A DNA stretch of 63,838 nt, counting the filler, from Craspedostauros australis (Eukaryota): the NCBI GenBank assembly GCA_030167865.1. It is 17 parts of 17 records of this genome, joined end to end, with 100 filler letters (N's around TTAATTAATTAA, not from the genome) between each part and the next. Parts side by side here need not be neighbours in the genome. Positions count along the whole stretch, not along the records: positions 5,166 to 9,753 come from JALAGF010004661.1; positions 9,854 to 12,335 come from JALAGF010004662.1; positions 12,436 to 20,409 come from JALAGF010004663.1; positions 20,510 to 25,565 come from JALAGF010004664.1; positions 25,666 to 32,023 come from JALAGF010004665.1; positions 32,124 to 34,024 come from JALAGF010004666.1; positions 34,125 to 35,982 come from JALAGF010004668.1; positions 36,083 to 38,922 come from JALAGF010004669.1; 9 more parts are not named here. One strand, given 5' to 3'. A model generated the notes under the pieces. That model saw only the letters and a list, made by a program, of their open reading frames with translations, had not been told where the DNA came from and did not search any database. Below are positions 5,166 to 42,926 of this stretch, one piece after another. The first letter of the stretch is position 1. Each line of letters begins with the position of its first letter. The translations under genes and the position numbers were made by a program.

Positions 5166-5166
5166 A

Positions 5167-8825: not shown

Positions 8826-8834
8826 GAGAGGGAG
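8826..8834 (+). other. Polypurine tract of copia family X
   Basis: GAGAGGGAG lies immediately upstream of the LTR start AGTTGAGATT. Confidence 0.8.
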
Positions 8835-9521
8835 AGTTGAGATTCAATNNNNNNNNNNNNNNNNNNNNNNNNNNNNNNNNNNNNNNNNNNNNNNNNNNNN
8901 NNNNNNNNNNNNNNNNNNNNNACTTGATCGACCACCAAATCTTTTCTCCTCCTTTCTCTCCTCCATTCACGAATCCATCATGACTCAAACCTGACCGACC
9001 TGACTCACACCCACTTGGGAACTATATGCTCTTCAGATCCTCCTTACAACAACATACCTCGATTCCATCATGCTGATGACCACCACACTACCACCGTGGT
9101 CCCAACATGCGTATCCAACTTGCTTCAACTCAAGCAATGGAATCCGAGAGCCAGCTCCAACCACAGCCACTGCTTCATGGTCGTCACTACCATGAGCCAT
9201 GATCTACACTGCAGTGTATCTACGTGTGTGGAGAGCAAGGCGCTGTAATAACCGTATACCCTGTAGCACTGAACCAAGTACATCAGTGCAGGGTCTCGCC
9301 AAGTTGTGTGACATCGTTTCTTCACCCTATTAACACCACAAGCTAACTCATAATANNNNNNNNNNNNNNNNNNNNNNNNNNNNNNNNNNNNNNNNNNNNN
9401 NNNNNNNNNNNNNNNNNNNNNNNNNNNNCTCTCTTGAACTGCATCACACGGCTATCCCGAAGCCGGCAGATTCACGAGGCATTCTCCACCGATTCGCGAC
9501 GCCTACGCCCGAATCCTAACT
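8835..9521 (+). repeat. 3' LTR of copia family X (AGTTGAGATT...AATCCTAACT)
   Basis: Follows pol and the PPT. Homologous to 36083-36429 and 41473-42070, and all three copies end at CCTAACT. Confidence 0.9.
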
Positions 9522-12500
9522 AAGACCAACAAAAAGGTTTCAAGGCTTCTCGCTACTTAGCGCTAGCGTCTCTCTTTGGAATCCACCAGAAACCACCAGC
9601 TGGCCACTGTGATGCTGTATTTCTCGTCGATCCGAAGCCCCATCAACGAAATCGTGTTCTGACACCGTCTGTTCGTCTTCACTTCGTGCGTGCCTACAAG
9701 GAGTCTACCTGAAACCCACAGCAGCCCATAACTTATCTAATATAATGATGATCNNNNNNNNNNNNNNNNNNNNNNNNNNNNNNNNNNNNNNNNNNNNTTA
9801 ATTAATTAANNNNNNNNNNNNNNNNNNNNNNNNNNNNNNNNNNNNNNNNNNNNTCTGATGTGGAGATGACCCATGATGTGGCGATGATGTCTTCTGTGTC
9901 GACGTCACTCATCACCGTTCCATGGCTCTGTCGATTCTACATTCCATTGATGATGCTTGAGGTCGTCGGGTGTGTTGTCATTTCAGGTTTAGTTGGGAAG
10001 TATATCAGGTCGAATTGGGCATCATATGTTTGCCGGGTGGTGGCCAGACCGAATCTCTGATGTTCTCTCTAGTGTGTCCCTCTTATGCCAAAAAGCATGT
10101 GTCGGAGTAAAGCATCGTTTCAGCACATACAAGGACAGACTAATCAGAAAACGAATCAGGTGAATAAAGCGTTGTGCTAATACCTTTCATGCTTTTGATG
10201 GGATGCGGTGCTCTCCGTCTGTTGCAACATGCACTGATGAGATCTGTACTGTATGCTGTGCTCTCTGCCCATCAGTTGCTTCCAGCCAGATGCTCTGCTA
10301 TTGACCATCTATTGAAACGGAGACGGTAGTTGGGTATAAGTTCGTATCTAATGCATTGTTTGACAGATTGTGTCTGTTTCGTGCTGCATCGCTCTGATGT
10401 CCTTTTCTCTGTGTTGCACCTTTCGTGCTCGTTTCTGTGGCTGTTGTGCTCGCTGCTGTTCGTGACTCATCCGAGCCCTCGTGACTGGTTTCGCTCCAAT
10501 ACCATCAGCCGAATATACAACTTCTGAAGACTACTGTGATGTTCATTCCACAGGCTCAATGTGCAGCCATCCACAAGGCTTTGAATGCACCAACTCACTG
10601 AGCATTGTCCTTGCCGCTGTGATGTCAGTGTTGTTGAGGTTGTTGTTGCCCTGATTCACAGCGCTTGCAGCTCGTTGTGCATTGCCAACTGCTTTTCACT
10701 GCCCTTTGCCCAGCGACATCATAGAGGATGAGAATTTGGCTCGCAGTGGGAGTGCAAGGAGATGCAGCTCCAGATCCACCATTGCCCTTCAACCATACTT
10801 GTATTCCTTGTGTGTCGGTACAAAGTGTTGACGATGGTTGCTGCATCCGCTGACGATGCTGCATAGGCGTTGGTGGAGTAGCTTGGTAGATTTCTCCGCT
10901 GGTGTGTTCATGAGATGGTGGTGTCTCATGGTCGTCGACGATGCTGTCGATACTGAACTACGTAGTGTCATTCTGCTAGGCACACACTGACCATATCTTC
11001 GGCGGCCGCAATGGAGTCGTTGTTGATGATCATGTTGACCTGTGGCCCTGGTTGACTTGCTGTGCTGGATGCAATTGCGTTGTTGTTCAGTTTCTATTGT
11101 TGACGGTGTCGGTGGGACGAATCTGTTGGTCCACCCAACGCCTCTCACCGAACGATGCGAGTGAATTTGTTGAGTTCGAATGCTTTGCGAGAACCAGCTA
11201 CTGTCTGTCCGTGCACCCACATACGTCGTGATGGTGAGACGAAGTGATTGGACACGGAATACTGATGATGACGTTTTACGAATGTCAATGACAAAATACG
11301 GGAGCCATCCGGAAATTTCAAATTTGAATTTCAAACGTTCACATTTTTCAGTAGTAGAAATTGCGTAGATCGTTGCCATGGAACACGAGTAACGTTAATG
11401 AGGTTGCGCGAGCCAATATTTAAAATGGACACTCTCGCTTTGGATTGATGGCGATTAAAGGGGTTCCACCATTGCTTCTTCTCCAGCTTACTCACTGCCA
11501 CCCAGAAGACCACATGTACTTCAATACTTCATAAATGATTTCCTTCAAAGACGTGGGACAGTTTGTTCGACATGGGTTGGATTGAACGACTGAGATCGAC
11601 CAAATGTGAACAAGAACATTCGCCACAGTACAACACGGCAATGCACGAGACTGAGGATGTCAACCCCATTCTCCATCGTTGCCTTGCTCTTTCAGAAGCT
11701 ATTATACTCGATTATCCCCTGTCCATTGGAAGTAATGCCTTCACCATCATAATCCTGTACGCAGTGAAACGAGAATGAGTGGGGGAAGAGCAGTTGGGGC
11801 AGCTGCACACGCTGACACTGCGGGTTGACCATGTTGTGAGCACCCAAGCAATGTCCGTCTGATCGTCTGTGCGGCAGTCGGCATCATGTTTTGCCTCCGA
11901 CCAACGAAAAACAGATTCTCGAACTCGTGAACAAACCAGCGAGAATAGAGGGCAAAAGAAGTCTGGTTGTGTCCGGCTTTGCCTCCCAGTGTCGGACTTT
12001 GGCAGGTCAAAAGGGGAAGTGAAACTGCCAACGTCAGCGCGGTTAAACGTAGTGTGACCACGAACGTAGATNNNNNNNNNNNNNNNNNNNNNNNNNNNNN
12101 NNNNNNNNNNNNNNNNNNNNNNNNNNNNNNNNNNNNNNNNNNNNNNNNNNNNNNNNNNNTTGAAGGTTGGAGAGGAAAACGAGATGGGCTGGTCATCACA
12201 CTGCTCTGCTGTTGGTTGTCGCTGTTCATGGTCTTGTACATTTGAAAAATCGCTCCACAATCCCCAGGCGATGAAACCACGATGCTTCATCGCTCTTGGC
12301 AGGTTTGAGAGCTGATTCTCCAATTGTTGGAGTGANNNNNNNNNNNNNNNNNNNNNNNNNNNNNNNNNNNNNNNNNNNNTTAATTAATTAANNNNNNNNN
12401 NNNNNNNNNNNNNNNNNNNNNNNNNNNNNNNNNNNGTACGTGCGATGAATCGGAAGGTGCAGAGTTGACAGGCTGTATACGTCTTGCGTGGCGTCCTGGA

Positions 12501-12797
12501 GCGCGTCGAAGCATTTCGTGTCGTCATGCGATGATGGCAGATCTGTGATTGTATCATCGCTGCGATCATCCCGAGTGTCTCACGTCTGATGCTCAATCCC
12601 GTCCTACCTGTATTCAATTCTTGGTGATGCCTCGTTGTTGACATTGACATCAACTGCTGCGCTTGGTGTCCAACACATACGCTCTACTCTGCGATATATT
12701 ATATAATACAATGCAACACGATGCTGGAATCCTACTATACCACACGTACCTGACCATGCCACTTGTATGCCGCACTGCGATACTTCTCCAATGACAG

Positions 12798-13653
12798 TGC
12801 TGCGGATGCTGCTGCGATTTCCGCAGAGCCGTCATCGTCGTCAGCATCCTTTCCCTTGTATTGGAGGTTATCGATGTGTACCTTGCCCTCGCACCTGATG
12901 ATGAGGCTGCTCCAGGGCAGGAAGAGATGGACAACGAAGAGGTCATAGTTTTCAACAAGGAAGTCAAGACGGCCTATCTCGCCATGGGCGTCATCGGTAT
13001 CATCATGGCTGGTGTGTCAATGTTCGGAGCCCTGCAATACAACGCCATTGCGGTAAGTAAATGTGTGCACTTGCTGCGGTTTGCGCCGGGTGCCCAGTCT
13101 TGGCGTTTGTTCTTTCGGTTTGGACCAGGCCCGGATGATCTTGCCGTCAGTACTGCCCATTGTCTGGCTTCCTTGATGTCATGCTTGTCGGCGCGGTCAC
13201 TCAAACATTCAGATCCAACATCAGCGCGCTCACAATCCACAAAAACTCTCCACAATCGTTTTCTTCATTCTTCCTCCCATGCAACTACGCACAACCCGGA
13301 TGGCGATACCGTCTGGTTGGTGACATACCAAACCACACCGCTCCACTCTGCTCTCTTCCACACACGACGTGGCTCGTTCGTGCGTTCAACAGGTTGGTAT
13401 CTCCGCTGCGTACTGGACTATCAACTACATCGTTGGTATCATCGTCACCGAGCAAGCGTTATCCGAAGTCGAAGACGAAACTGGAACCACCTTCAATGCG
13501 ACAAGCGGTTACGTCATCGATGCTGTCATTCTTGGGTTGTTCCTATACCCCAGCATCGGCTTCATCATGGAAGTCCGCAGTGGTGTCATGTCGCAACAGA
13601 CGTACCCCCGCGAGGGGTATTCCTGCTGCTGCACCCAAAACCGCCGCTACTAA
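12798..13653 (+). CDS. Intron-containing host gene (5'-partial) for a small multi-pass membrane protein with Cys-rich termini; exons 12798-13052 and 13393-13653
   Basis: A phase-0 intron GTAAGT(13053)...CAACAG(13392) joins 'CCGCCCDFRRAVIVV...FGALQYNAIA' to 'VGISAAYW...TYPREGYSCCC'. An upstream intron starts with GTACGT at the scaffold edge (12436) and ends at TGACAG (12797). About four hydrophobic segments. Confidence 0.8.
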
Positions 13654-13767
13654 GACCCAGGTCAGTGAGTGGACCTGCCGTTGGTAAAGTAGAGTGGCAC
13701 TTTTTCTTCGATTACAACAGAACTAAGCATACAAACCTGCTCAATATAGTCACCATAGCAACAGGAA

Positions 13768-14398
13768 TGTTAGAACGTAATCGTAGATGGGTGTGAAGGA
13801 TACCGCACCGAGAACGTAGAGTGATCAAGTCGTTGTTGTTGGTGAGGAGAGTGTTTGTTTACTGTATTATTCGTATGGTAGTAGGAATGCTGTCGAGCTC
13901 ACAAGATGGTTTCTTGAGAACTGTGAGCATGATAGAGGCATGACATGATCTCATGCAATTGCAGATGAAAATAACACGGAGACAACACGACAAATGTGCG
14001 TGTTACTGCGTGAAGATGAGGTGCAAAAGTCAATGAACAAAACACGGCGATAGCCCGTGTTGTAAATTACGTCTTCTCACGATGTTGCTAGTAGTACGAT
14101 CACACGATTGATCGTATTCACTTGAGAAGGTCAGGGCAAGATTCGCACGTGTCACACCCAAGATCCAAGACTGTCCTGATTGGGCAGATTGGCTCATCTT
14201 GGCAAGAAATCAATTTCCACGACATTTTTGGATCTGTGATTGAGGGAAAACGATTCTTGCGACGCGAAATGCGACACAAATCTGACACAACGGATTTTCG
14301 ACCAAAATTTCCGTTCGGAACGGAAAAGGTAAGAAAAGTGGATATTTCTGATTGGTCGACGGGTGTCGCTATTGTTAGAGATTTAGCGTGCGCTAATA
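13768..14398. mobile_element. Solo LTR of family Y (TGTTAG...CTAATA) with 5-bp TSD AGGAA
   Basis: AGGAA at 13763-13767 and 14399-14403. An inverted, near-identical copy lies at 17792-18423. Confidence 0.85.
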
Positions 14399-16043
14399 AG
14401 GAAAACTACCCAGAATCTCAAAGTCCATAGTTTAGGTTTTATGGACCCGTCAATGTGCTCATTTTGGGACTACTCCTAAACTTCAGCGATAGACACCCGA
14501 CAAGTTCGATCCAAAATAACGTGTTCGTGTTCTTGGTTTTGGCGAATTTGTTCACATTTTGAATTAATTAGTCCTTATTTTGTTNNNNNNNNNNNNNNNN
14601 NNNNNNNNNTCTCATCCTCGTCCGAATCGCATCCCTCACTTCTTCCGGGACCATCTCTTCGTTCTCCGCGTGCCTCCTGGTGGTGTTGGCCTCGCACCAC
14701 ATTCTATTCTCTCGCTCCTCTTCTTCCATCTCTTCCTCTTCTTCACTCTGCTGCTGCTCTGCTGGCTTCGTACCTGATGGTTCCGCGACAGTTGCGGCTG
14801 TTGCAGGCGGCGATGGTGATGGTGGTGACGATGGTGATGTCGATGCCATTTTGGTGTTGTTGTTGGTCGCACTTGGTGCCGCGGTTGTTTTCTTCGCTGC
14901 GCGCTGTGCGTTGTTGTATGCTGCGGTAAGGTACGATTTCACGCGCATTGGACTTGCGTGCAACTGGATGAACCAGTCGGTCTCTGTTCCCTCCAGCTCC
15001 ATCAATCGGCGGTGCGCTTCGTGTTCTGTTGGTCGATTTTTCGGGTCCTTTTTGGCGGCCGTGCTCATTTCATCCAATTTCTGCAGTACGTACCGTGGTA
15101 GCTCCGCGTTGGTGCGCGTTGTTTTCACTGCCCAGCCCTTCACCGTGAGTCGAGGGATTTCTGCTTCCGCGGTCTGATCTTTCAATTCCGCAGTGTGGTT
15201 GTGTGGTAGCTCTCCTTGCCCTATCTCCAATGCGTCGCGAAACACAAGCGCTTTGCTCTCCACCGCGGTAGCACCCCACTTTCGCGTCTTCTTCTTGGGT
15301 GATTCTGCTGTGAACGGTTCCTTTTCTGACGTGTGCGTCGCGATGGTGCGGACGCCCAGCTGGTTAATTTCCCAGTCTTCCCATTCAGCACATGGGACGA
15401 GAACGTCGTCTGTGACACCGGATGCCACCACCAAATTGGCCTCGTTGTTTCCGAACTTCACCTCGTGCGTTTGGCGTACCTTTTGCCCTTTCGCACAGAA
15501 GCGCTTCTTGGGCATGCCAGGGAAACTCGTGACGCGCCCTTCGAGGCATTCTGCATCCACCAATACTGTGGTCGTTCCCGCGATGTTGCCAGCTTCCAAG
15601 GTGTCAAAAAGTTGGTGTTCCGTTTTGATGTCATTGCCCTCCAGCACGTAGGCTCGCAATACAACGGTGATGTACGCAAAGTGGGTGTCGAGGCGGCCTT
15701 TACCTGTTTGGGCTTCGGTGTAGATCCAGGCTGCAATCTTGGGGACATTTCGCGTTCCAAGGTTCTTGTTGAGCACCAATGTGATCAACGGGATGTGCTC
15801 GTGGCTCGCAAAACAAGACGCGTTATCGGATTGGATGACAATTTCGGTGACCGATGGAAGAATTTTTCTCACCTGTTGTTGCACAATTTCGAGCAGCCCG
15901 CCAACTTGTAGGGTGTCTTGTGTTGGCCTCCCCTTTACGATGATATTGATGAAGCGATAAGTGAAAATGTCATTGTGACACATGATCACCATTGCACCCA
16001 ACAGAGACATGCCCTTCTTGCCCCAGTATTCTTGTTGAGCTTC

Positions 16044-16609
16044 TGTCGGAATGTGTGTACTCGGATGTGTATGCATCAGTCACACTTGCTTGCCGCCATC
16101 TAGACTATTCGGTGGCGGAATCACGACACAAAACTATGACGTCACAAGGATACCATCGCTGTACCATGAGGATACCGCGATACTACGATAGCAGGATACC
16201 GCGATACCAGCGGATACCACAGTATCCATCACACGTGACGTCATATCGAGACCTTAACTACCAGGTCTACAGGAATGAAATATGTTGTGAATATTCCATC
16301 AGATTCGATCAATCGTCAGGTTCAACAAAACCTGAGAACGGAACAACGACGAGACAACGAGAGAGAAACGACAACGTTGACGATCAGGTCAACATCAACG
16401 AGCAACATGAGAGAAATGTGCATGGAGGTGCAAGAGGATTGCACCAAGCAATGAGAGCAAGGAAGAGATGGATCAAGAGAGCATCTTGATCATCTCATTC
16501 TCCATGCTCGCTCATCAACAATCAATAGCAACAACAGTAACAGTAACAGAAACACTTTGAGAAAGAGTGTTGACTACTACCGATTCTCCGTGCGCGGAGC
16601 CTTCCAACA
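16044..16609. mobile_element. Solo LTR of family Z (TGTCGGAA...TTCCAACA) with 6-bp TSD AGCTTC
   Basis: AGCTTC at 16038-16043 and 16610-16615. Terminal inverted repeat matches at 7 of 8 bases. The insertion splits the transposase at G-E-A|Q-Q. Confidence 0.85.
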
Positions 16610-17791: not shown

Positions 17792-18423
17792 TATTAGCGC
17801 AACGCTAAATCTCTAACAATAGCGACACCCGTCGACCAATCAGAAATCTCCACATTTCTTACCTTTTCCGTTCCGAACGGAAATTTTGGTCGAAAATCCG
17901 TTGTGTCAAATTTGTGTCGCATTTCGCGTCGCAGAATCGTTTTCCCGTCAAACACAGTTCCAAAATGTCGTGGAAATTGATTTCTTGCCAAGATGAGCCA
18001 ATCTGCCCAATCAGGACAGTCTTGGATCTTGGGTGTGACACGTGCGAATCTTACCAAGACCTTCTCAAGTGAATACGATCAATCGTGTGATCGTACTACT
18101 AGCAACATCGTGAGAAGACGTAATTCACAACACGGGGTATCGCGGTGTTTTGTTCATTGACCTTTTGCACCTCATCTTCACGCAGTAACACGCACATTTG
18201 TCGTGTTGTCTCCGTGTTAATTTNNNNNNNNNNNNNNNNNNNNNNNNNNNNNNNNNNNNNNNNNNNNNNNNNNNNNNNNNNNNNNNNNNNNNNNNNNNNN
18301 NNNNNNNNNNNNNNNNNNNNNNNNNACAGTAAACAAACACTCTCCTCACCAACAACAACGACTTGATCACTCTACGTTCTCGGTGCGGTATCCTTCACAC
18401 CCATCTACGATTACGTTCTAACA
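17792..18423. mobile_element. Solo LTR of family Y in the opposite orientation, with 5-bp TSD TCCGG
   Basis: TCCGG at 17787-17791 and 18424-18428. The insertion splits the transposase at L-P|E-D-Q-R-V. Confidence 0.88.
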
Positions 18424-19413
18424 TCCGGCAATCCATTGACGTATCGAGTGAGAATGTCCGTGCATGCTTTTGGAGATGCAGACTCCGCGAGAACAGCTCT
18501 CGCACAGAGGTGCATCAGTTTGCTCCCTCCAACACATATGCGGTACAGATTTGGTGCAAGCGTCAGTGGTGGCAGTGGTTGCCCACCTCGGACAAATTGC
18601 ACCACCTCATGCATCTGGCGAGTTGGTGTCGCTTCTTTTGGGAGCAACACACCCCAAAGCTCAGAAGCAATTGGCGCCCACAGCCATTTGACGTTGCACC
18701 AGACTTGCTTGTTGTGTTTTCCACCCAGTGCGAATCCTGTCTTCGGCATGGAGTCGAACACTTTCGGAGATAGGCCAGACTTAACCAAACCTGCGACGCG
18801 GACCAACGCATCACGACGCCATCCTCTCGCCGTTTTCTGGATGATTCTGTTGCAGCCTGTTCGTTTCTTCCTGCGATCACGGCCATCCACGTAGTCGTCG
18901 TCGCTGTCAACATCAACTTGCTCGGAAGCGCCTCCAGCGACAGCGTTTGCGTGTCGTGCAGTGCTTGCGCGGGTAGTTGGTCTGGCAGGAGACTCAACAG
19001 GAGGTGGCACATTCACACTGATGTCTACCACTGTGATAGCACCGACACCTTGTCCAACCGTACGCAGTGTGACCGTTGGTGTATCAAAGATGACACCAGC
19101 CGCACTGGACAGGCGCACGTCAACACGCAGGTTAGCGGCATCGACATGCGCCAAAGTTGGAACAAGGTTGCTGTCCACCAGAAGCATCGGCTTCACCTCG
19201 ATCGTGTGAGTGATGTCAGTGGGCTTCCGCAATCCAGTAGACAGCTTGTCAGGCAACAGCTGCTCACGAGTAGGTGCCAAGTTGCCCTCCGAATCAAAAG
19301 GAGAATCGAGAGGGGCAGCACAGGAACGAGGCTTCTTACGAGGAGATGGGGTTTCGCCCTTGATTGTTGCTTTGGCGGGGATGGAGGACATGGTGTTGAT
19401 GGTAGCAAAGGAG

Positions 19414-19414
19414 G

Positions 19415-19447
<33 letters not shown>
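19414..19447. repeat. (GATT)n microsatellite just upstream of the transposase start
   Basis: Tandem GATT units read directly. Confidence 0.9.
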
Positions 19448-20247: not shown

Positions 20248-20320
20248 AGTAGTAGTGGCAGTAGTAGTGGCAGTAGTAGTGGCAGTAGCAGTAGCAGTAG
20301 TTGTTGTTGTTGTTGTTGTT
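20248..20320. repeat. Compound GTA/GTG/GCA and (GTT)n microsatellite
   Basis: Tandem trinucleotide units read directly. Confidence 0.9.
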
Positions 20321-20644: not shown

Positions 20645-23600
20645 TCAGAAGAGGACCCGTTGTGCTTGTTCTTTTCGTCTCGGTCCTTGTTGTTGTTTCG
20701 TGAGCATGTCGGACAGATTGGTATCCGATGGTTCATGTTGGACCACCAGGATGCCCGCGGCGATGCTTTCTCGGACGAAATGGTATGCGATGGCATTGGC
20801 TTTCTTCCGCAATTGTGATTCTGGTAGTGAGGAATTGTATACCACACTCTGATTGTCGACCCGTACGTCCGCCGGGCCATCCAGTGGAATGCCCATCATG
20901 CGAAGCTTGTATCTCATGCCGATGATGATTTCGGTTGCGACCTTGAGTGCTGTGAACTCGCTGCCGAATGTGGATGTCTCAATGCTGTTCTGTTTCTTGC
21001 TGTACCACAGTATCGGTGATGTATTCAAGAATAAAAGCACACCAGTGCGTGAACGTCGCGTGACGCGGTCACCTGCATGATCAGCATCAACAAAACATGT
21101 CATTTGAACCTCCTTCCCGCGCGGCGATGGCATGTCAGCAGGCAATTGCTCATGAGCATCAGGGTAGAAATCGTTCCAGTTGGGTTGCATCACAGGCGGT
21201 TTGTCAATGTATGCATCGTCAAAAACAAGGCGAGAACGATCGTGAGATTTGAGGTATGCGAACATATGAAAGAGAGCATGCAAGTGACCAATTCGTGGCG
21301 CAACACAGTACGATGCCATCATTGAGGTCTCGCAGCAAATGTCGATTCGTCCAAGCTCCACAGTCCAACGCAGTATACCAATGAGTTGCTGGTAGAATGT
21401 CATTTGTTCGGAGTCACACAATTGTGATCCATCCAATTCCGGTCGGTACTTGTTCGGTAGGACGCTGGGTGCTTTCGTCTTGAGCCTCAGATTGTGGTCG
21501 GTGAGATATTTGGTGACAATCTTGAGAGCGGACTTGATGTATTCTTGTGAGCCCATGCTCCATTTGGGGCGTGACGGATCGGCAGTGAGGTGAAATTGTG
21601 AGATGGTCGATCCAAGATATGTTGTAGGCGGGCCAATGGAACTCGGTTTGAGGAAAAAGTGTGAGTCAATCGCATCAAGGATGCGTCGTGGTTGTTTGGA
21701 TACAGCGAGAATGTCGTCGGTGTACACGAGCACGTATTCGTAATATTCTGACCCATCGCTCGCAACTGCAGGCTTCATCCAGACGTCGCTGTCGGCACGA
21801 CAGGATGTGAATCCCAACGAATCGCGCAGTGTCTCTGCTAAGTGTGCTCTCCATGCTGCTCCACTCGACTTCAATCCGTATAGGGCCCGACAAATGATTG
21901 CGATCTTCCCCTGGTCGGATCCAAACTCGGGACCGCATCGTGTGTATATGCGTTCTCGACATGGAGCATTGAGATATGCATTCTGAACATCTGCGGCAAG
22001 AATGTCCAGGTCATTGAGTGCGGCGATCAAGAACGCAATGCGTACGCTTTCGCGTGACACCACACTTGCGTATGTGATTGTTGCAGGTGCTTCCGTCATG
22101 TGTCCCCCAGCGACAAGTCGCGCCTTTCTTGTGAGGTCCACCTTGACGGCGAATATCATGTGGCATTCCATGTATTGGTAGCCCACAGGGTCGGGAGTGT
22201 CCAGTTCCTTGATATCAAACGCTGGTCGCACGGCCTTCATTTCTTTCGCAATAGCTTGTCGCCACAGATCCGTGCCTGTAGCCGCGTCGATTGCGAGTGC
22301 GTGGCGCACTGACGTAGGGAGCTCCACGCCGAACATCTCATTCTTTCGGACGTGTCGCCGCTTCGTTGCCATGATGATGCGTTGTCGTTTGCGTAGGGTG
22401 TGTGGTACCCACCACTTGAATGCGGGTTCGTTGACGAGCTTGTTGTCTGCAGCGTATTCGGCAACGCGTACGGGGTCGGCTTCTTTTGCGTCGCGTAGGT
22501 GGATCCAGGATGTGGACCCGTCCTTCCATCGGATGCAGAGCTTCCAGCCTTTTGTGGATTTGGAATGGGGAGAAGGAGAAGAAACAGAGGGCAAGCGTTT
22601 GTGGTCGATGATTTCATCCATCAGCATAGTTGTATATCCGTCGTCGTCAATGCGCGCGTAGATGTTCTCTGCGATTTGATTGGCGCTGAACACCTCGTGG
22701 TGTCCATCAATGAATTCGACTTCGTATTGGGCGGTGTCAAGCATAGGATTCGGATGAGAGCGGCCGATGAGGTTGCCTTCTGTGTCTCGTTTGCGTTGTT
22801 TGACTGTTCCATGTTGCATTTCGTCCCCTGTCGGCAGAATGACCTTGGTTGCAATGTATTTGTCGAAGGTGGCACTATCGACATCGTCTGGCTCCACGAT
22901 TGGTTCCAGTGGTTCGGTGTTCTGTAGGATGGCGATGTCTGCTGTAGTATCGTCAACGTCGTCGCCGTCGTCGTCAATTGTGATGCCCTCCATTCGTTGC
23001 TTCCATTTGGATCGAAGTGTGTCCATGAATTCATTGCATTTGTGTGTGATGACGTCGCTGTGTGTATCGTCGTGAGAGAGAGGCAAAACAGAGGATTTGG
23101 AGACAACAACGCCATTGGCAGTGAGGATGTACGAGCACATTGCATCACCAACAGAACGACTTGGTCCAAGGTATCGACCAAGCTGCTTGACGTTCATGGA
23201 TGCGTCTTGAATGTTGATATACCACACAAAGTCAAACCAGCCGAATTCAGCAATGTGAGAGATGTCAGCAGTGTCACCGGACAAGATGGTGGCCGGTGTC
23301 TCGCCGTGAAGATCATGAATGGCGAGTGCAGTGTGACTGCGTATCTCGGCACAGTACTCGAAGCAGTAGTCCCACAAATACTCTGGTGTATCGGTCGAGG
23401 TCATCAGCCGTCGATAGTGGCGCCGAAGCTCACGAATGGTTGCTTCTGCTTTGTTCTGATTGTGGATGTATGCTTCGATCGGTCGGATGGAAACTTGTGC
23501 TTTGTATAGTTTGCGACGGAATTCGCCAGCGACGAGCTCCTTGGCGTTATCAGGAATGATGGTGTGTGGGATGCCATGATCACGAAACAGTTCGTCGAGT

Positions 23601-24547
23601 GTGCGATGTGCTTCCTTACGTTCCGCCATTGGGTACACCCGGACCCAGTGAAACGGTGTACAGTAGATCATGGCGCATTTGTTGCCACGAATCGACTTGG
23701 TCTTCGCGTGCATGGTGTCGGCATAGAGTTGGGTGTTAAGTCGACGGTATCGTAGTTGCATGGCATATGGGTTGAGACGACGTGTGCCTGATGAATGTCG
23801 GAAGTCACGAATGGCCAGTTGTGTTGTTGCGTCAAGGGTACGTGATGCAGCTTCTGTCCCAATGCGCCAGCGTTGTGCGAGGATGTCGGGTGTGGTAGTC
23901 CCCTTTCGATTGGATGTGTGTGTGCCATGGATGTTGAGGGACGATATGGTTCGTTGTGATGAAAGAGACGCTCGGATGGCGTCTTCGTCGTCCCCTGACG
24001 ACCACTGGGATGGGTCCCATGTGGCCTCTTGTGTCATCATGACATGGATGCAGTCGCGATCGGATTGGATTTCTTGTTGTGTTGGCTTCCTCATGGGGAA
24101 GTAAGATACAGTGCCTTGCAATCGTAGAGGAATGTATAGGTCGTCGTCGGATGAGACCATAGAGTGGTCTTCCGGTTTCCGTTCGTGCTCTTTGATCATG
24201 AGCAGAGGAACATCATTCACGACTATACCCGCAGCCCTCATTTGATTGGGGCACAACAAAGGATGTTCAAGACGAGGAAAGTAGATCGATTGTGGAAAGA
24301 AAAGGATGAATGTTTGATATGTAATTGGATCATCGTATGCTATCGCAGCTGTGACGATTGGTGCATTATCGATGGACCCAAGTGAGTCGATAAAAGGGGT
24401 TGCAGTGACGGTTTGATCGGTCTGATGCACGATGTACGCAGTGTCACCAAAACAACAAGTATCCGCGTGTGAGTCGAGCTCTGCCCGTGGAGTATCAGAT
24501 GGCAGAGACATGCTGACGGACGTGAGCCGCCGAGTGCGACTTTGTGG
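20645..24547 (-). CDS. pol: CoDi-type Ty1/copia Pol: protease, integrase, chromodomain-like module, RT, RNase H
   Basis: ELDSHADTCC (protease); LYADTM...IIPDNA...QNKAEATIRE (integrase DDE); IIDHK...GWKLCIRWKDGSTSW (chromo-like); RKARLVAGGH, RALYGLKSSG and YTDD (RT); FVDADHAGD and VDNQSV (RNase H). Intact, and in frame with gag after a single TGA. Confidence 0.95.
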   Translation of the reverse strand, partial: PQSRTRRLTSVSMSLPSDTPRAELDSHADTCCFGDTAYIVHQTDQTVTATPFIDSLGSIDNAPIVTAAIAYDDPITYQTFILFFPQSIYFPRLEHPLLCPNQMRAAGIVVNDVPLLMIKEHERKPEDHSMVSSDDDLYIPLRLQGTVSYFPMRKPTQQEIQSDRDCIHVMMTQEATWDPSQWSSGDDEDAIRASLSSQRTISSLNIHGTHTSNRKGTTTPDILAQRWRIGTEAASRTLDATTQLAIRDFRHSSGTRRLNPYAMQLRYRRLNTQLYADTMHAKTKSIRGNKCAMIYCTPFHWVRVYPMAERKEAHRTLDELFRDHGIPHTIIPDNAKELVAGEFRRKLYKAQVSIRPIEAYIHNQNKAEATIRELRRHYRRLMTSTDTPEYLWDYCFEYCAEIRSHTALAIHDLHGETPATILSGDTADISHIAEFGWFDFVWYINIQDASMNVKQLGRYLGPSRSVGDAMCSYILTANGVVVSKSSVLPLSHDDTHSDVITHKCNEFMDTLRSKWKQRMEGITIDDDGDDVDDTTADIAILQNTEPLEPIVEPDDVDSATFDKYIATKVILPTGDEMQHGTVKQRKRDTEGNLIGRSHPNPMLDTAQYEVEFIDGHHEVFSANQIAENIYARIDDDGYTTMLMDEIIDHKRLPSVSSPSPHSKSTKGWKLCIRWKDGSTSWIHLRDAKEADPVRVAEYAADNKLVNEPAFKWWVPHTLRKRQRIIMATKRRHVRKNEMFGVELPTSVRHALAIDAATGTDLWRQAIAKEMKAVRPAFDIKELDTPDPVGYQYMECHMIFAVKVDLTRKARLVAGGHMTEAPATITYASVVSRESVRIAFLIAALNDLDILAADVQNAYLNAPCRERIYTRCGPEFGSDQGKIAIICRALYGLKSSGAAWRAHLAETLRDSLGFTSCRADSDVWMKPAVASDGSEYYEYVLVYTDDILAVSKQPRRILDAIDSHFFLKPSSIGPPTTYLGSTISQFHLTADPSRPKWSMGSQEYIKSALKIVTKYLTDHNLRLKTKAPSVLPNKYRPELDGSQLCDSEQMTFYQQLIGILRWTVELGRIDICCETSMMASYCVAPRIGHLHALFHMFAYLKSHDRSRLVFDDAYIDKPPVMQPNWNDFYPDAHEQLPADMPSPRGKEVQMTCFVDADHAGDRVTRRSRTGVLLFLNTSPILWYSKKQNSIETSTFGSEFTALKVATEIIIGMRYKLRMMGIPLDGPADVRVDNQSVVYNSSLPESQLRKKANAIAYHFVRESIAAGILVVQHEPSDTNLSDMLTKQQQGPRRKEQAQRVLF

Positions 24548-33931: not shown

Positions 33932-34257
33932 ACCAACTCTCTGGTGAGCGGTACAAGGCCCCTGGTCATGATCGCGGGATGCATACAGGCACGCCTCTTG
34001 GCGATGCATCTCCGCTCGACGCTGNNNNNNNNNNNNNNNNNNNNNNNNNNNNNNNNNNNNNNNNNNNNTTAATTAATTAANNNNNNNNNNNNNNNNNNNN
34101 NNNNNNNNNNNNNNNNNNNNNNNNCCCAATCCGCAGACCAACAGCTCACGAGCTCACCCAAGCCGCGCACATCACGATTTGCGACAGGCACCGACGCCTC
34201 AGGCGATCGCACACACATGTCGACTTCGACAAAGTATTCCAGCATCTCCCACCACAA

Positions 34258-35982
34258 GTGGTGGCGAAGACCAAGGAAGCATCCACCCAGCTGGCCGACA
34301 CACCCATCGAGGCCGAGTCAAGACTCATCCCGAGGCAGTATCGAGCACAGCGAGCAGGTGCGCTGCAGCCACACCGAATCAAGGGAAGGGTGGACACAGA
34401 TCCATTTTTCTCCACGGTCCCATCCATCCGACAATACCGATGCATCCAACTCTTCACGCACAGCGATTCCAAGTTCATCTGGGCCAAACCGCTCCGCAGA
34501 GAGGCGATGGCGCCAGGGGCGCTGACGGAGTTCATTGTGCAGGTCGGGGCACCGGATCTACTCATCTCGGACAACTCACAGGTTCAGGCTGGGAAGGCAT
34601 GGAAGGCCATCACAACGCGCTACATGATCAAGCACTCCTTCACTGCTCCAATGAACCAGAACCAGAACCACGCAGAGCGAGCCATCGGGAACATCAAGCG
34701 ACACGCGTATCAGATGCTCTGGGCCGCGACTGCGCCACTCACATTTTGGTGTCACGCAGTGCAGCACGCTATCGACGTATGGAACTACACGGCCAAAGAA
34801 AGCATTCAGTGGCGCACTCCAATCGAGATGTTGCGAGGCAACACACCGGACATCTCCATGTTCCGATTCACGTTCTTTCAGCCAGTCTGGTATTTCGAGC
34901 CGATGACGAAGTTTCCGCACCACCCATTCAAGCCGGGGCATTTCTTGGGGATTGCATGGGACCATGGGGACCCTTTCACCTATCACATTTGGTCGCCGAA
35001 AGGCGAAGACGTAACCAAGGGCACGTCCCTGGTGCGCAACATCGTGAAACCACGAATCGCGGAAGACGCAAATGCGCCGCAAATTACCGACGAGGAAGTG
35101 CAACGAATTGCACGCCTCGATCTGATCCACTATCAAACCAATGGCGAATCGGGGCAGCGGGCGCGCACCAAGACTATGCCGGCGCAGCTTGCTCGACAGG
35201 TCCGAGAGGCCATCGACGCAATTGCCGTGCGGTCAGGGGCGGCAGCTCGAATCCCTGAAGCAGGACCACCGGAGGTCAGGGGCGTCGCGGTGAATGAAAA
35301 CAGCACTCCCAATGAAGACCGGTGGTTCGGTCAGCCGAATGTCATCGCAGACGACGATGACGACCGCGACAGCGGGCCCACGGGCGCAATATCCGACGAC
35401 GACGGGGACGATGATCGCTCCACTGGCAACATCTCGAACGAATCCGATGATGACGAACCGGTGAGGATCCCAGATCCACCCAAGCAGCGGATTCAGGGGC
35501 GTATCGGCACTCTGGCTGAGCGCGAGCATGACGAAATGTTCCAGAATCAGATCGCCAAGGACGAAACGAACGATCCAGCCATCACATCTGTCGCAGGCCA
35601 TTCATTCAGAGACGGACATCTTCATCTCAACGTGAAATGGGACAACGACGAGACGCAATGGTTCAGATACGACATCCTGAGGGCAGACCATCCCGAGATC
35701 GTAGCGAGATACATCATCGCAAACGAACCGAAACGGCATGACAGACACAATCGGCAGTCGACAACAATGCTGAAATGGGCAAAGCACGCCGTGCGNGCGA
35801 TCCGACGACGCATGAAACGCATCGAGCGCACGCACCAATTCACAATTGACGACGACGATAACATCTCCATTCTGAGGCGCATACGGCCAGGGAAGAAGAA
35901 ACCAAAGAAGGACTTCTTCGCCACCGTGTTTCAGTACGGAGTGGAAGTGCCGCGCAACATGAAGCACGCACTCCAACTCGAC
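34258..35982 (+). CDS. pol: CoDi-type copia Pol fragment: integrase core plus chromodomain-like module
   Basis: TDPFFS...LISDNS...QNQNHAERAIG (DDE core); chromo-like 'ITSVAGHSFRDGHLHLNVKWDNDETQW'; 'FQYGVEVPRNMKHALQLD' of the kind that precedes RT. Truncated by the scaffold edges. Confidence 0.9.
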
Positions 35983-36082
35983 NNNNNNNNNNNNNNNNNN
36001 NNNNNNNNNNNNNNNNNNNNNNNNNNTTAATTAATTAANNNNNNNNNNNNNNNNNNNNNNNNNNNNNNNNNNNNNNNNNNNN

Positions 36083-36429
36083 GCTTCATGACCGTCACCA
36101 CTGATTGCCATGACCTACACTGCAGTGTAACTACATGTGCGGAGAGCAAGATACTGTATTGATTGTCTATTCTGTTGCACTGAATCAAGTGCATCAGTGC
36201 AGGGTCTCGCCAAGTTGTGTGGCATCGTTTCTTCACCCTACTAACACCAACAAGCTAACTCATAATAACAGACAAGGATTAGCTACAAAGCACTCTACTA
36301 CTCATCGTTACAGTTATAACTCTTCAACCAGTACACCTCTCTTGAACTGCATCACACAGCTATCCCGAAGCCAGCAGATTCACAAGGCATTCTCCACCGA
36401 TTCGCGACGTCAACGCCCGAATCCTAACT
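36083..36429 (+). repeat. 5' LTR (partial) of copia family X
   Basis: Homologous to 9172-9521 and ends at AATCCTAACT. Followed by the PBS and gag. Confidence 0.9.
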
Positions 36430-36446
36430 GGTAGCTGCGAGTGGTT
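36429..36446 (+). other. Primer-binding site, probably for initiator tRNA-Met
   Basis: TGGTAGCTGCGAGTGGTT is complementary to a tRNA 3' end ...AACCACUCGCAGCUACCA. This implies an A1:U72 pair, a hallmark of eukaryotic initiator tRNA. Confidence 0.75.
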
Positions 36447-36858
36447 GCCAAATACTCTCTTATCAACTCCACCGAGCATCTTCCTCTGCCAACCGATCGC
36501 AAGAGTCTCTCTGAGACGAAGCCAAAAAGGCATAGCTCGCAAATCGAGCCTCCATCAAAGGACCACGTCCTCATCGCATGTATCTGATTTGAAATCAGAA
36601 CCCCAAAGCTCGAACACCGAGGCACTCAAGAGGACAAAAGTCCCAGCTGAAGGTAAGCGACCCAAGGTCGAACTTCAGTAGCCTCTGCTAAAGCAAGCTA
36701 TAACCGCACTCGCCGACCGAGTACGAGCCTCTCCAAGCCTGCATCGAACTTCAGTGCACACCTTCCCAACAAAGTGAAGCCGAGCAAGAGCAAGAGAAGG
36801 CAAACAGATCGATCCCCTTGAAGTCCAAAGACCACTCAAGAAGTCCCCGTCATCCATC

Positions 36859-38922
36859 ATGGCGGAAGAGACAACCCCTGCCACGCTGGAAGTGCTGCAA
36901 GCGCAGCTCGAAGCGATCACGGTCGAGAACGCTCGCCTCACACAGGCGACGTTGGCGGCCGAAGCCGCTGCAAAAGCAGCAAACGCGGCTATAGCCACTG
37001 CCCAAGCAGCGGCGACAGCCACCACGACCCCAAGCCGTCCCGGTCTCGAGCGCAGCCGTTCTGCTGGCGACACACGAACCCGGACGGACCAGTCCTTCCT
37101 CAACGACAGCATCTTCGACATGGAAACTCCCATGCCCAAGAAGAGCAGAAAGTCAGAAGAGGACAGCGAAGACGACGACCACGACCTCTCTGGGAAACCA
37201 ACCGTTCCAATCATGGGAGGTATCCTCAAGCAAGGACGCAACTGGGTACCCTGGACCGCAGGCGCACCAAACGGACATTGGACCGGCCTCCAAGACGAGT
37301 CACACACCAGGTGGACCAACTCTCAACAACAGAGAATCCTCCATAACGGTGCTGACTCCACCAACCAGTCCAAGCGGGAGCAAGGACTCACCGACAAGTT
37401 CAAGAAGGGAGGGAACATCCAGCAGTTCATCCGCCTGGTGCGAAACCACATGGCCAGAACCGGACTCCTCACCATGGCGTACATCGCTGACGCCAACGCA
37501 GAGTCAGGGATGACTTGCGTCCTGGACTCACCAGCCGCCTTCACTCTTGAAGATGCCACCAAGCACTTCGACGAGTTCCATCTGAAGTGGGATCACTACG
37601 ACGTCCAGAACAACGAGACAGCCTCAGCGTTCTTCCGTGACAGTCTTGATCCAGTTCTCGAAGACCAACTCATGAACCGAATTGAGCCGAAGTTCCACGA
37701 TAACTTCATCACTCTCTTCGTTGAGTTCATGAACAGCAACTCGGCCAATTCCTTGGATGAACAAGACGCCCTCGCAGCCAAGATCCGCGAAGTCAACTGC
37801 AGACGTTTTCCAAACGAGAACGTTGGTCTCATGGCAGTCCACCTTCGTGCTCTTTGCAAGCGCCTCGACGACGCCGGTCGCTTCGACCTTCGTCTCCTCC
37901 GAACGATCCTCGATGCCTTCCTGCAGGCTGGAGGACAGATCCGGTCTGGTGAACAGTACCGACGTCCTCTCTATGTGATGAAGGATAGCCTTGAGGAAAT
38001 CCTCATGCGTCTCCCCGTCTTCACGTACGAGTACGCTCGCCCCCAGCTTGCCGCAAAAGACCTCACATGGATGGCAATCTGCAACAAGGCCGAGTTGTCG
38101 TACGAAAACGAAGTGCGCGGAAATCGCTGGCATGCCATCAGGCGTACCAGAGATAGCAACGTGCCCAAGTACTCGTACGCCAACAACGTCGTCCAGAATC
38201 CAAGCGCCAACGTTCTCGAGCAACACAAGGGTTTCTCCAAGAACGATGGAAAGAGAAACAACCTCAAGAAGCCCAAGGAACGCGACGCCAAACGCAACGC
38301 CGGTCAGGGCTGGTCGTCCAAAGCTCCCAAGCCCGGTGAGCCACAGCGCAAGCTTGTCAACGACAAGACTTTTATGTGGTGCGCCAAGTGCCGCCGCTGG
38401 CGTCTCTCGCACAACACCGAGAGTCACCAAGACAACTTCAAGTTCAAGGCGAAGTCTAAAAGCAAGCAAAGCCCCAAACAGGACAACCTCTCCATTGACA
38501 TGGCTGCGTGGACATGCTTCACAGCCGCCTCCAGTCAAGACGAAGACACCTGGTGGTCCCTCGTCTGGAACCTCTTCACCTCCTTCAACTACTTCGGTAG
38601 CATCGTTGGAATGGTTCTCCTCTTCGCCTCACTCCAAGTTATCACTATCGGAGTAGAGTATGGGTGGTACATCGCGGCAGCTAATGCCTGGATGCTAATC
38701 GCCGTAACTCTACTACTCCTCCACACAAGCGTCCCACGAAGACCCGACTCAATCAACTCTGCTGACCTAGTCTACAACAAGGCACGAGTCAAAGAACGAT
38801 ACAAGCAAGTTCACAAACGCCCAACACACTTCAATGGAGCTGTGAAACGCAGTCTCTACGATCTCGTGATGGAAAGTCTCGACCCAGATGGACCCAAACC
38901 CGTGAACGTGTCGAAAGGAAAC
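36859..38922 (+). CDS. gag: Gag(-Pol) of copia family X, 3'-truncated, with a Cys/His knuckle and a hydrophobic segment
   Basis: Long ORF downstream of the LTR and PBS. Contains the knuckle WCAKCRRWRLSHNTESH followed by two hydrophobic stretches (about 38551-38721). Confidence 0.85.
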
Positions 38923-39678
38923 NNNNNNNNNNNNNNNNNNNNNNNNNNNNNNNNNNNNNNNNNNNNTTAATTAATTAANNNNNNNNNNNNNNNNNNNNNN
39001 NNNNNNNNNNNNNNNNNNNNNNACGTGATTCATTATTTTTGATTCGACTCGATTTTGAGAGTATAGTCGAGTGAGTCTTGATACACGATTGAGATTCAGT
39101 CACTACAGTCATCGAACATGACGTAGGCACTGACATCATCGTATGACGTCAGTGGATCGGTCATTATGATCCTCGGAATCGAGATTATATCTTAGTCATG
39201 GTATGCTGACCTGTCTAGCCTAGCCGAATGCATCATCGAGCACGTGGCAGCAACATTTAGGATCCAGAACAACATCGTCAGGGGTGATGCATGCACCCCA
39301 CCGACGTAGACGGATCAATCCATATGTGATCAAACAGAGATCAAGACCAGACAAGATCAGNNNNNNNNNNNNNNNNNNNNNNGGTGGAGATAACACGAGA
39401 TATCGTGTAGATCAACATGCCATCTTGGGCAATGTTTTAGAAAAGACTGCGAGAGAAACCACGAGGTAATCGAGCAGCACGATAGCAACCGTGCAATAGG
39501 CACCATCTTTAGAATGATGAGATCATCATCTCATAATCCAAACTCAATCATCAATTGAACACAACCTATTAGAACAACAACAACCACCAAACATCTCCAA
39601 CTCCACCTGACGGATTGATCACCCTGGCGGCGTAGTAAGTGCAGTGTTTGGTGCCCTTTTCCTGTGTGTAATTGCTGA

Positions 39679-41190
39679 TTATCACTTCCCGTCATGACCG
39701 ATCCCAAGATGTTGATGACAATGAAGATCTTACAGTACCTCGGATCTGTTGCCTTCCTGGCTGCCAGGGATGCGACGTTGCTACTCGCGGGATTTCGCCA
39801 GGTGACGTTGATGCTGAAGCATGGGCAGAGTGGCGAAGGTGCCTATGGGGCTCATGTGACGCGCTCGGTCGCATTACATATCATGAAAGATGTGAAATTC
39901 GCAAAACGGTTGCAAACACTCCCGGCAAGGATTCTCGCTGCGACGGACTCCAAATACGTGATGTGCCAGTTTTTCGCGTCAGATACAGGATTCCTGACTA
40001 CATGGTCTGAGCCTGTACATGTATGTTTGGCAGCCTATCAAAAAGGCCATCGAGCCGGGATGGAGGCAGGTGATTTGTCTCATGCATATCGGTGCTGGGG
40101 GATGTGCTTGCTGCATGGCTTCATGTGTGGGGTCCCGCTTGTGTCCTTGCACCGCACGGCGAAGATGTTCCTGGTCCAAGTCGAACATTACAACCTGAAG
40201 GAGATTTCCAGCTCGTATGGACAAGTCGCACGTTTCTTCGAGATCTTGCTGGGCATGTCGTCTTCTCGACTTCAAGGCGAAGTGATTCGGGAGCAATCAG
40301 GTGAACAATCAATCGGGCACTGGAAGGACCGGTCTGATGTCCCATCAGCCAAAGACATGAATCGTGAGCAACACATTCGTTGGGGTATATGATACTGGTG
40401 CTACGAGCAATTAACGATGTACTTCGGTGAATTGGAGCTGGGAAAGATCTGCATGGGGCCATCAAAAGCTAGCGCTGGGCTCGACCATACCTTTGCTCGG
40501 CAGACCGTGAGAGTGTTTCAAGGTGGGCTTACCATGTCCAGGATGGCGCAAAAGACAGACAACAAGAGAAAGCGGAGGAAGTACCACCGCAAGGCGGCAA
40601 ACTACACGGCAGAACTTCGTCGTCTGGTCGAGAGAAATGGCGGCAACAACCTCCATCGGTACCTCATCATGGAGGCAGACACGATGGCAGCTGGAGGGAA
40701 GCAATTCGAACAGAAGGTGAAGGCAGCGTACGACAAGGCCATTTCCTATTGCGCAAGATCGGGACATGTCAATGATGCAGCGCTGGCAAATGAGCTTGCC
40801 GCTGAGTACTTTCTGAACAAGCACACAGGCACACCGGCGCTGTCTGGGTCTTTGCGTCGCACAGCTTTGAGCGGTCCCTTACGAAGCTCTGATTTTGAGA
40901 GCACTGGTGTCCTGGACGATGACGAAGACTTCTACTGGCCACGGCAGTATCTGGGAAATGCCATCTCGTTGTACAACGAATGGGGAGCAAGGGCAAAGGT
41001 GGATCAGCTGCTGGAGAAGCATCCGAACTTTCTCGATCGAAGCATGCTGGAAGGTGGTGTTGGTGGGGAGAACGGGGAAGGTGGCGAGCGGCGACGGAAA
41101 CGAAGAACTGCCCGGCATACAGCAGATACGCGAATGTGCGTTGCCACAGCCCACAAGATCATGGCAGAGGTGAACTTTGATGCCTTGTAG
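39679..41190 (+). pseudogene. C-terminal helical part of a STAND/AAA-ATPase (sensor-kinase or adenylate-cyclase-associated type) protein, 5'-truncated, with one in-frame TGA
   Basis: Motifs 'LPVMTDP...GHRAGMEAGD...YDKAISYCARSGHVNDAALANELAAEYF...AISLYNEWGARAKVDQL'. ORFs 39694-40392 and 40417-41190 are in the same frame, separated by TGA at 40390-40392. Confidence 0.7.
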
Positions 41191-41472
41191 TTGCACGGAG
41201 TACGATAGATTGCAACAGAACTGGAATAGTAGAATGCGACTGATGAAAAATCGTCCATCGGGAATTGATCCACGCATGGCCGCCTATTGTCGTCCTGAGA
41301 ACCGAAAGATGGAGTAATTGCAGATGGGAATCGAGGGATGTACGAGTGTGATGCACATAGGTACCGGCTGGCACGAAAGGCGAAAAGTCAGGGCCTTGAC
41401 GATGCATTCGTACACGGACGTAGCATAAGCCGATTGGTGTATTATAATCTCCACTTCATCAACTATACGTGG

Positions 41473-42070
41473 AGTTGAGATTCAATAAGGGACAGACTAT
41501 TACCAGACACGGTATCAACCCCGATGGGAGAAATTCTTGTTTTGGCGCGAAATCCTCAGACTTGATCGACCACCAAATCTTTTCTCCTCCTTTCTCTCCT
41601 CCATTCACGAATTCATCATGACTCAAACATGACCGACCTGACTCACATCTCACCTTGGGAACTATCCAATCTGCTTCAACTCAAGCAATGGAATCCGAGA
41701 GTGAACTCCAGCCACAGCCATTGCTTCATGACTGTCACTATTGAGTGTCATGATCTACACTGCAGTGTGTCTACGTGTGAGGAGAGCAAGGAACTGAAAT
41801 AATTGCCTACCCTCAAGCACTGAACCAAGTACATCAGCGCAGGGTCCCATCAAGCTGTGTGACATTGTTTCTTTACCCTACCAACACTATAAGCTAACTC
41901 ATAATAAACAGACAAGGATTAGCTACAAAGCACTCATCTACTCATCGTTACAGTAACACATCTTCAATCCCGTACACCTCTCTTGAACTGCATCACATGG
42001 CTATCTCGAAGCCAGCAGATTCACGAGGCATCCTCCACCGATTCGCGTCGACTGAGCCCGAATCCTAACT
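41473..42070 (+). mobile_element. Solo LTR of copia family X
   Basis: AGTTGAGATT...AATCCTAACT, flanked by CGTGG and AGTGG (a 5-bp TSD with one mismatch). Confidence 0.9.
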
Positions 42071-42926
42071 AGTGGTGTGTTGTTGTGGTCATTCGAACAG
42101 ATTAATTTTGGTTTGGTTTGTTGAAGGAGTGTGTTGTTCTATGTGGAAAGGGGGCATTGTGGTTGACATGGTGTTGTGTCAGATCGTGTCTGATCAAATC
42201 GTTATGGTGTTGTGACTTGTTTGATTTGTTTTAGCTTTCTTCGCGGGACATGCTTGAGGAGATGCGGTAATATCTTTTCAAGCATTTTTATTCATGTCCA
42301 CAAGAACCTGTGTTCGTTTGCATTTGTCGACTAGAATCAACGGACCGCGGCTTCCGAAAGTGTTGGTCAGAACGATGGACAACAAAGAACGCTTGCTATC
42401 CAATAAAGTGTCAACGCAGCTGATGATGTTATGACCTCGAGCAACCTCAAGAAAACGCGTTGGGCGGCTTTTGCGTCGCACGGCCCTTGGACGACACAGC
42501 GATCACAACAAACAAGCCGGAACGCCGCAAAATTGCGCCTCCATGGTCATGTCCAGGGAGTCGAGGTAAACGAAGGCGTGCACAGAAATGGCCCGTACGA
42601 CAGACAGACAGAAAATAACACAAAATGCACATACAGTCCGCCACAAAGCAAGAAAGAAAGTAAGCAATTTTTGGGGCCAGCAATTTGTCTCCTACAATTA
42701 TGATGATGGGTGCAGAATGCGCCCACCACCATGCCTCTGCCCCTATTTATATTGTTTTCGTTTTTTGCTTTTTGTGTGGTTTTGTTGTTGTTGGTGTGGT
42801 TTGGTCGGTGTTGATATATCATTCATTCTTGATCTCTTGTTCATACCGCTGTTGCTTTGGTGCTGCCTTCAGCTGCTGTCTTATGTCTTCATTCGTTCCG
42901 ATGCTGTGCCATATGGTGCTGCCTTG

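Follow-up and report, generated by a model that had tools for sequence, protein, structure and literature searches.

The stretch analyzed here (the window; 63,838 nucleotides from the genome of Craspedostauros australis, GenBank assembly GCA_030167865.1) consists of several contigs joined artificially, with N runs and TTAATTAATTAA linkers at positions 5110-5121, 36028-36039, and 38968-38979. It contains three copies of the long terminal repeat (LTR) of a Ty1/copia retrotransposon family whose LTRs begin with AG and end with CT, all lying on the plus strand. The first belongs to an element represented by the 3′ part of its gag-pol open reading frame (ORF; 5167..8757, stop codon at 8755-8757), which encodes the C-terminal part of the integrase, a long linker, the reverse transcriptase (RT), and RNase H (RVT_2, E=5e-37). 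Beyond the stop codon lie a polypurine tract (PPT), read from the sequence as GAGAGGGAG (8826..8834), and, directly adjoining it, a 3′ LTR of 687 bp (8835..9521) that runs AGTT...AACT (AGTTGAGATT...AATCCTAACT) and has two N gaps within it. The second is the 5′ LTR of another copy (36083..36429), which lost its start in a scaffold gap and ends in AACT, its final T being also the T of the TGG that opens the primer binding site (PBS; 36429..36446); downstream lies the gag portion of its one gag-pol ORF (36859..38922), which is cut by a scaffold gap and has no Pfam match. The third is a solo LTR of 598 bp (41473..42070), again AGTT...AACT and falling about 87 bp short of the typical length, between target site duplication (TSD) copies CGTGG (41468..41472) and AGTGG (42071..42075) that differ by one mismatch. 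These three LTRs represent different insertions on separate contigs and are 84-95% identical by segment.

The near-complete copies L240 and L242 tie the gag and pol halves in the window to one family, and a near-complete sister copy, L241, supplies the overall organization: an ORF of 2424 aa with DSGA at 824, the integrase at 1025-1177, YVDD at 2093, and RNase H at 2260-2407 (RVT_2, E=2.6e-38; integrase DDE residues present), that is, the copia order of protease, integrase, RT, and RNase H (PR-IN-RT-RH). Given its copia RT, domain order, LTRs, PBS, PPT, and TSD, the window element is a single-ORF Ty1/copia LTR retrotransposon, a copia as the sequence-only reading had proposed; TG...CA termini, which are usual and not obligatory for Ty1/copia, are replaced in it by AGTT...AACT. 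Across RT and RNase H, the pol part at 5167..8757 is 50-57% identical to diatom-type copia proteins. The best 120 homologues are 48-56% identical over these domains, and the four that are named to species are all diatom proteins (including those of Fragilaria crotonensis and Mayamaea pseudoterrestris), so that, judged by these protein matches, the host is probably a diatom. The family is probably CoDi-like. The gag region closes with an extended hydrophobic segment ahead of the protease (window positions 38520-38720).

Because both host-flanked right ends in the window are followed by A, the window alone is weak evidence and does not fix the right boundary. Across the genome, among 30 loci fetched by similarity and hence without bias, AGTT occupies 18 of the 21 visible starts (the others being 1 TGTT, 1 AATT, and 1 TGCT). 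The subterminal LTR pattern has 181 matches in the genome against 0 in the control, and the family comprises at least 181 LTR starts in the 66-Mb assembly. A survey of 113 loci, based on long 3′ anchors that place no constraint on the final four bases (a short anchor with 3 mismatches had matched random sites), recovers AGTT at 60/62 host-flanked starts, some of these loci having been fetched with an AGTT-containing pattern, and AACT at 29/35 host-flanked ends. Perfect 5-bp TSDs sit exactly outside AGTT...AACT in 11 of 24 solo-like LTRs, and 3 more carry a TSD with one mismatch, one of them after correction of a one-base anchor offset. By comparison, any other boundary pair within +/-3 yields at most 1 solo-like copy with a 5-bp or 6-bp TSD, and shuffling the pairing of flanks (20,000 shuffles) yields a mean of 0.45 and a maximum of 5 perfect TSDs. 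A sister family in the genome, with at least 73 LTR starts, has perfect 5-bp TSDs at the same boundaries in 8/12 cases (9 if a one-base offset, seen by eye, is allowed for). The AG...CT ends of the family are thus real and confirmed genome-wide, and the proposal, made originally from the solo copy in the window, that 5-bp TSDs lie precisely outside these ends holds in both families.

The flanks lead to the same center. The left flanks and the reverse-complemented right flanks share a bias toward G at -6 and toward A/T at -8, -11, and -12 (for G at -6 and A/T at -8, p=1e-2 and 2e-9 on the left and p=1e-3 and 6e-5 on the right), a mirror image that is expected of a symmetric integrase cut centered on a 5-bp TSD. 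The target preference at family LTR flanks in the genome is roughly W-W-N-N-W-T-G-[5 bp]-C-A-W-N-N-W-W, and the TSD base that adjoins the LTR start avoids A. We rejected an alternative in which the LTR ends in AACTA and the TSD is 4 bp long: no one base consistently follows AACT, and what a 4-bp TSD scores at that shift is only the tail of the 5-bp TSD.

The PBS is complementary over 18 nt to the 3′ end, CCA included, of the host's initiator-type tRNA-Met, which makes it an intact-tRNA (Ty1-type) site, not one of the anticodon-arm type; its first T is the last base of the LTR, so that the one-base overlap read earlier from the window agrees with the host's own tRNA. One pattern recovered three tRNA-Met(CAT) genes in this genome (G000; C414, C3286), and these have an A1:U72 pair and the T-loop GATCGAAA, which we take to be initiator marks. 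Initiator tRNAs are also marked by three G-C pairs in the anticodon stem; that of the host's initiator-type tRNA-Met is CCAGG/CCTGG, without these pairs (L110, L112). Two of the gene copies are in tandem, 195 bp apart (L110:1450-1521 and 1645-1716).

The T common to the LTR end and TGG occurs in all 20 junctions read, which were fetched by a pattern containing that T; the non-overlapping forms AAC[AT]TGG have 0 matches in the genome, and CA precedes TGG in 0 of 18 other junctions found with the upstream bases left free. Downstream of the PBS, a second tRNA-complementary box, CTTCCTCTGC (36480..36489), pairs with the D-arm of tRNA-Met. Of the 43 junctions listed, 37 have such a box at a distance of 39-56 nt from where the PBS begins, and several of those without it are not clear elements; the box is kept across the AG...CT families of the genome. 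Further families in G000 also have a PBS for the initiator tRNA-Met (tRNA-iMet) and share its T with the LTR end (L114, L115, L118, L120, L122, L125, and L255), with LTRs ending in ..ATCT, ..AACT, ..AATT, and ..CACT.

A metagenome scan returned 79 related loci, several of them near-duplicates, of which 69 have a readable pol end. Starts after the PPT, called with a pattern that permitted only [AT][AG]T[CT], were assigned in 54 of these 69 and consist of AG (42), AA (6), TG (5), and TA (1). The PPT ends in the same register (..GGGAG) before AG and TG starts alike, including those of the distant TG families of the C. australis genome, and position 1 therefore represents a T-to-A swap. In three metagenome loci, the two LTRs cease to match immediately beyond ACT. 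All 37 loci with readable primer sites have the LTR end adjoining GGTY-n-RCCCAA, a site of the half-tRNA-iMet type, and none of the 79 has a convincing intact-tRNA PBS. At these 37 junctions, the LTRs end in CT (26), TT (4), CA (4), GT (2), or TA (1); the base before the half-tRNA site is T in 32 and A in 5, and the occurrence of A before GG indicates that this base is not fixed by the primer. Subterminal bases covary in the 12 relatives labeled at both ends (AGTC/GACT in 9, AGTT/AACT in 2, mixed in 1). The D-arm motif ACGCT, which was chosen after the sequences had been viewed, is present in 24/37 relatives against 2.5% of control windows, and the window-type box CTTCCnCTGC is present in 0/37. 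Other combinations of ends (AA..TT, AG..GT, AG..CA, AG..TT, and TA..TA) stand before the same half-tRNA-type site in L132, L136, L143-L145, L147, L150, L155, L172, L185, and L201, those of L136 and L144 being AG..GT. In a subclade of L143, L145, L149, and L151-L153, the PPT lies 1.5-1.9 kb beyond the pol stop, and the intervening sequence is possibly an extra ORF or an insertion.

Phylogenies built with IQ-TREE from 30 hand-picked rows and with FastTree from 105 rows have the same shape. In the 30-row tree, the AG clade is recovered with support of 100/98, the subclade of this genome with 100/100, and its sister clade with 100/98; TG elements fall outside, and TG- and TA-starting members are also nested inside the AG clade in both trees. 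The outgroup L248 (G000:C5725, minus strand, 968-7958) is an intact-looking copia with 376-bp LTRs that are 99.5% identical, TG...GA ends, a perfect 5-bp TSD (ATGAT), and a half-tRNA PBS that matches the anticodon arm of the host tRNA-iMet over 15 nt. A loose search of the genome for half-tRNA sites gave 15 matches against 59 in the control, by a design that missed the site of L248, and a scan of IMG/VR gave 70 pattern matches with no relative among them.

The interpretation that we consider likely is that the family belongs to an integrase-mobilized Ty1/copia clade in which AG...CT ends are ancestral and arose under half-tRNA priming, the subclade of this genome having later switched to the intact tRNA. 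The outermost base pair would have been swapped within a broad clade, from TG...CA to AG...CT. Plus-strand priming would begin in the PPT register that TG relatives also use, such that the cDNA starts with A; the cDNA ends would be blunt, as in Ty1; and the integrase would join a 3′-T-OH, reading the subterminal GTY/RAC instead of the last base. If the ancestors in which the AG...CT ends originated used the 5′ half of tRNA-iMet as their primer, the last LTR base would be the first base copied and would be free to vary. The subclade of this genome would then have moved to the intact tRNA 3′ end, the old terminal T becoming the T of TGG, in which case the right-hand T must derive from A76 of the primer, either because A76 is left by RNase H or because it is exposed by trimming of the copied tRNA tail. 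In HIV-1, RNase H leaves the terminal A of the tRNA, and retention of A76 in the subclade of this genome is a reasonable inference.

Parsimony places the half-tRNA state as ancestral, given that the sister clade and the outgroup each have a half-tRNA site. AG...CT ends are clade-wide and probably older than the overlap with the PBS, which would be a later add-on. The sequence-only reading had instead tied the origin of the ends to retention of the terminal A of the tRNA, an idea not supported by the sister clade, which has the same AG...CT ends with a half-tRNA PBS (GGTT-n-GCCCAA) directly after the LTR and, across the relatives read, either T (32/37) or A (5/37) as the preceding base. As for its companion idea of an altered integrase end specificity, the clade also has members of the types AG..TT, AG..GT, AG..CA, AA..TT, and TA..TA, and others starting with TG, and specificity looks more relaxed than altered.

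Several observations weigh against this interpretation. Since the two subclades are sister groups, the inferred ancestral primer depends on a single outgroup whose PBS could be read, the long-branched L248; of the other outgroups, L200 is without an identified PBS and L251 shows only a D-arm box. The ends of the metagenome loci come without a TSD check, the tRNAs of their hosts were not seen, and the counts include the near-duplicates and the restricted start calling described above. In the genome itself, 10 of the 24 solo-like LTRs have no TSD, perhaps because copies recombined with one another or were collapsed in the assembly.

As for the switch itself, we tentatively suggest, with more doubt than conviction, a natural change of primer in which plus-strand transfer, by microhomology at a shared TGGTT, picked up a copy of the 3′ end of intact tRNA-iMet and so inserted 13 nt before the old half-tRNA site; such a change would be viable only because the clade ended in T and had a tolerant integrase. 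It may have been favored if the old GCCCAA had lost its match to the host anticodon stem, CCAGG/CCTGG. TGGTT-GCCAAATAC, the tail of the PBS and the sequence beyond it (36442..36455), resembles the half-tRNA PBS of the relatives, and 7/37 relatives have 6-8 nt, from CCAA, in common with the post-PBS sequence. This suggests a possible relic of the old half-tRNA site, the 7/37 count being suggestive only. Were the switch to have happened in this way, A76 would now template the base at the right-hand end of each new copy, and a copia integrase would be joining a 3′-T-OH.

It is unlikely, by our estimate, that the overlap itself made the AG...CT ends, with the terminal A of AACA lost next to TGG, A76 retained, and the left end following, in convergence on the errantivirus mode; the half-tRNA priming of the relatives would then be later or proceed via an A-tailed half-tRNA whose pairing extends to the T. 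Such an origin accords with the T shared with TGG at all 20 clade junctions of the genome (the pattern contained that T), with the 0 non-overlapping forms, with the T that precedes GG in 32/37 relatives, and with L248, in which the last A of the LTR could also pair with the tRNA. It accords poorly with the A before the same GG in 5/37 relatives, which shows that the base is not fixed by the primer, and with the half-tRNA site of both the sister clade and the outgroup. We regard as less probable again a cDNA with extra PPT- and tRNA-derived terminal bases that the integrase trims by 3′ processing after ...ACT, a scheme in which the ends are not blunt and specificity is changed rather than relaxed. 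The purine run does continue into the LTR (GAGAGGGAG-AG), so that the sequence does not reveal where RNase H cuts, and AGTT/AACT is near-uniform within the genome. Yet the PPT and PBS adjoin the LTR without a spacer, as they do in Ty1, whose ends are unprocessed; the range of terminal dinucleotides in the clade is what a tolerant integrase would allow; and no residue separating AG from TG integrases was apparent by eye in the two catalytic regions (53 rows, few of them TG). A boundary artefact, with the true ends elsewhere and the A and T owed to target-site preference, might be read into the mismatch in the TSD of the window's solo LTR and the 10/24 solo-like copies without a TSD, but it has practically no chance of being right, being refuted by this family and its sister through 5-bp TSDs that appear only with the AGTT...AACT boundary pair, by the A and T at internal PPT- and PBS-facing ends, and by G/C bases at -6/+6, which exclude a 7-bp TSD.

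Elsewhere in the window, two other, distant copia pol genes with RVT_2 matches (20645-24547, minus strand, and 51648-54086, plus strand; gag at 55888-57918) are 71-76% alike and inverted. Long inverted repeats (13767-14389 and 17802-18424), 92-100% complementary and about 3.4-4.5 kb apart, surround ORFs without a Pfam match and are possibly a DNA transposon or an assembly artefact.

Among the cis signals that LTR integrases recognize, none is more conserved than the terminal CA-3′OH. A large and successful clade of copia elements joining through T, and including LTRs that end in CT, TT, GT, CA, and TA, would offer a natural series on how an integrase reads ends and how RNase H sets them, and the presence of two primer types in one clade makes primer switching testable. 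There is a practical consequence as well: LTR finders that require TG...CA would, as anticipated from the window, miss this family, and those limited to TG...CA or to lists of motifs starting with T would miss or mis-trim such elements. With families this numerous missed or mis-trimmed, estimates of repeat content and of insertion age in diatoms may be wrong.

Among diatom elements, TG/CA termini are absent from CoDi3.2, 4.2, and 4.3, according to Maumus et al. 2009 (PMC2806351), and the end motifs tabulated by Filloramo et al. 2021 (TGCA, TACA, TGTA, TATA, TTCG, TGAG, TGAT, and TGGA; PMC8147415, Tables S10 and S11) all start with T. The window family resembles CoDi elements in its copia domain order, its diatom-type relatives, its LTR of about 690 bp with a 5-bp TSD as tabulated for CoDi2, and in the non-TG/CA ends of some CoDi groups (PMC8147415, PMC2806351), but its AG...CT ends correspond to none of the tabulated motifs (PMC8147415). 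Plant non-TGCA copias are likewise altered in their terminal dinucleotides, including 3′ CT (TGCT, TACT), but their first T is stated to be invariant (Ou and Jiang, 10.1101/137141; lotus, PMC9804982), most of their non-canonical ends do not form an inverted repeat, and the LTRs are short, at about 270-320 bp, whereas the window family has A as its first base, a perfect 4-bp inverted repeat, and 690-bp LTRs. No AG-starting copia was found in the literature searched, parts of which were available only in extract, and one may be recorded in Repbase, GyDB, or subscription papers, which lay outside the search; the accessible text of PMC5445492, PMC2774666, 10.1101/2025.10.24.684338, PMC12992720, and PMC2790888 adds nothing on AG ends.

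The closest likeness in the ends themselves is to Drosophila errantiviruses, as had been noticed from the window: LTRs ending in AGT/AnT characterize the gypsy, ZAM, and Idefix subgroups (PMC5408687, PMC3601003), the ends of the window family fit the definition given there (PMC5408687), and AGTTA...TAAYT of the Zam clade is nearly identical to AGTTG...TAACT. Errantiviruses, however, are Ty3/gypsy elements with an env gene and the order RT-RH-IN, whereas the window family is a copia with its integrase before the RT, which makes the likeness of the ends convergent. A one-base overlap of LTR and PBS is also a feature of gypsy/17.6 elements, though none of the literature passages searched states such an overlap.

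Within Ty1/copia, both Ty1 and Drosophila copia have TG...CA ends. The window family is like Ty1 in having an intact tRNA-iMet PBS and an extra D-arm pairing box. Ty1 is primed by intact tRNA-iMet with additional pairing beyond the PBS, the Box 2.1 pairing not being confirmed in the study concerned (PMC3592414), and the copias primed by half-tRNAs comprise Drosophila copia, Osser, and Bryco (PMC6317226). It is the metagenome relatives and L248, not the window family, that fit half-tRNA-Met priming of this kind. What sets the present elements apart from both systems is that the two primer types occur here within one AG...CT clade.

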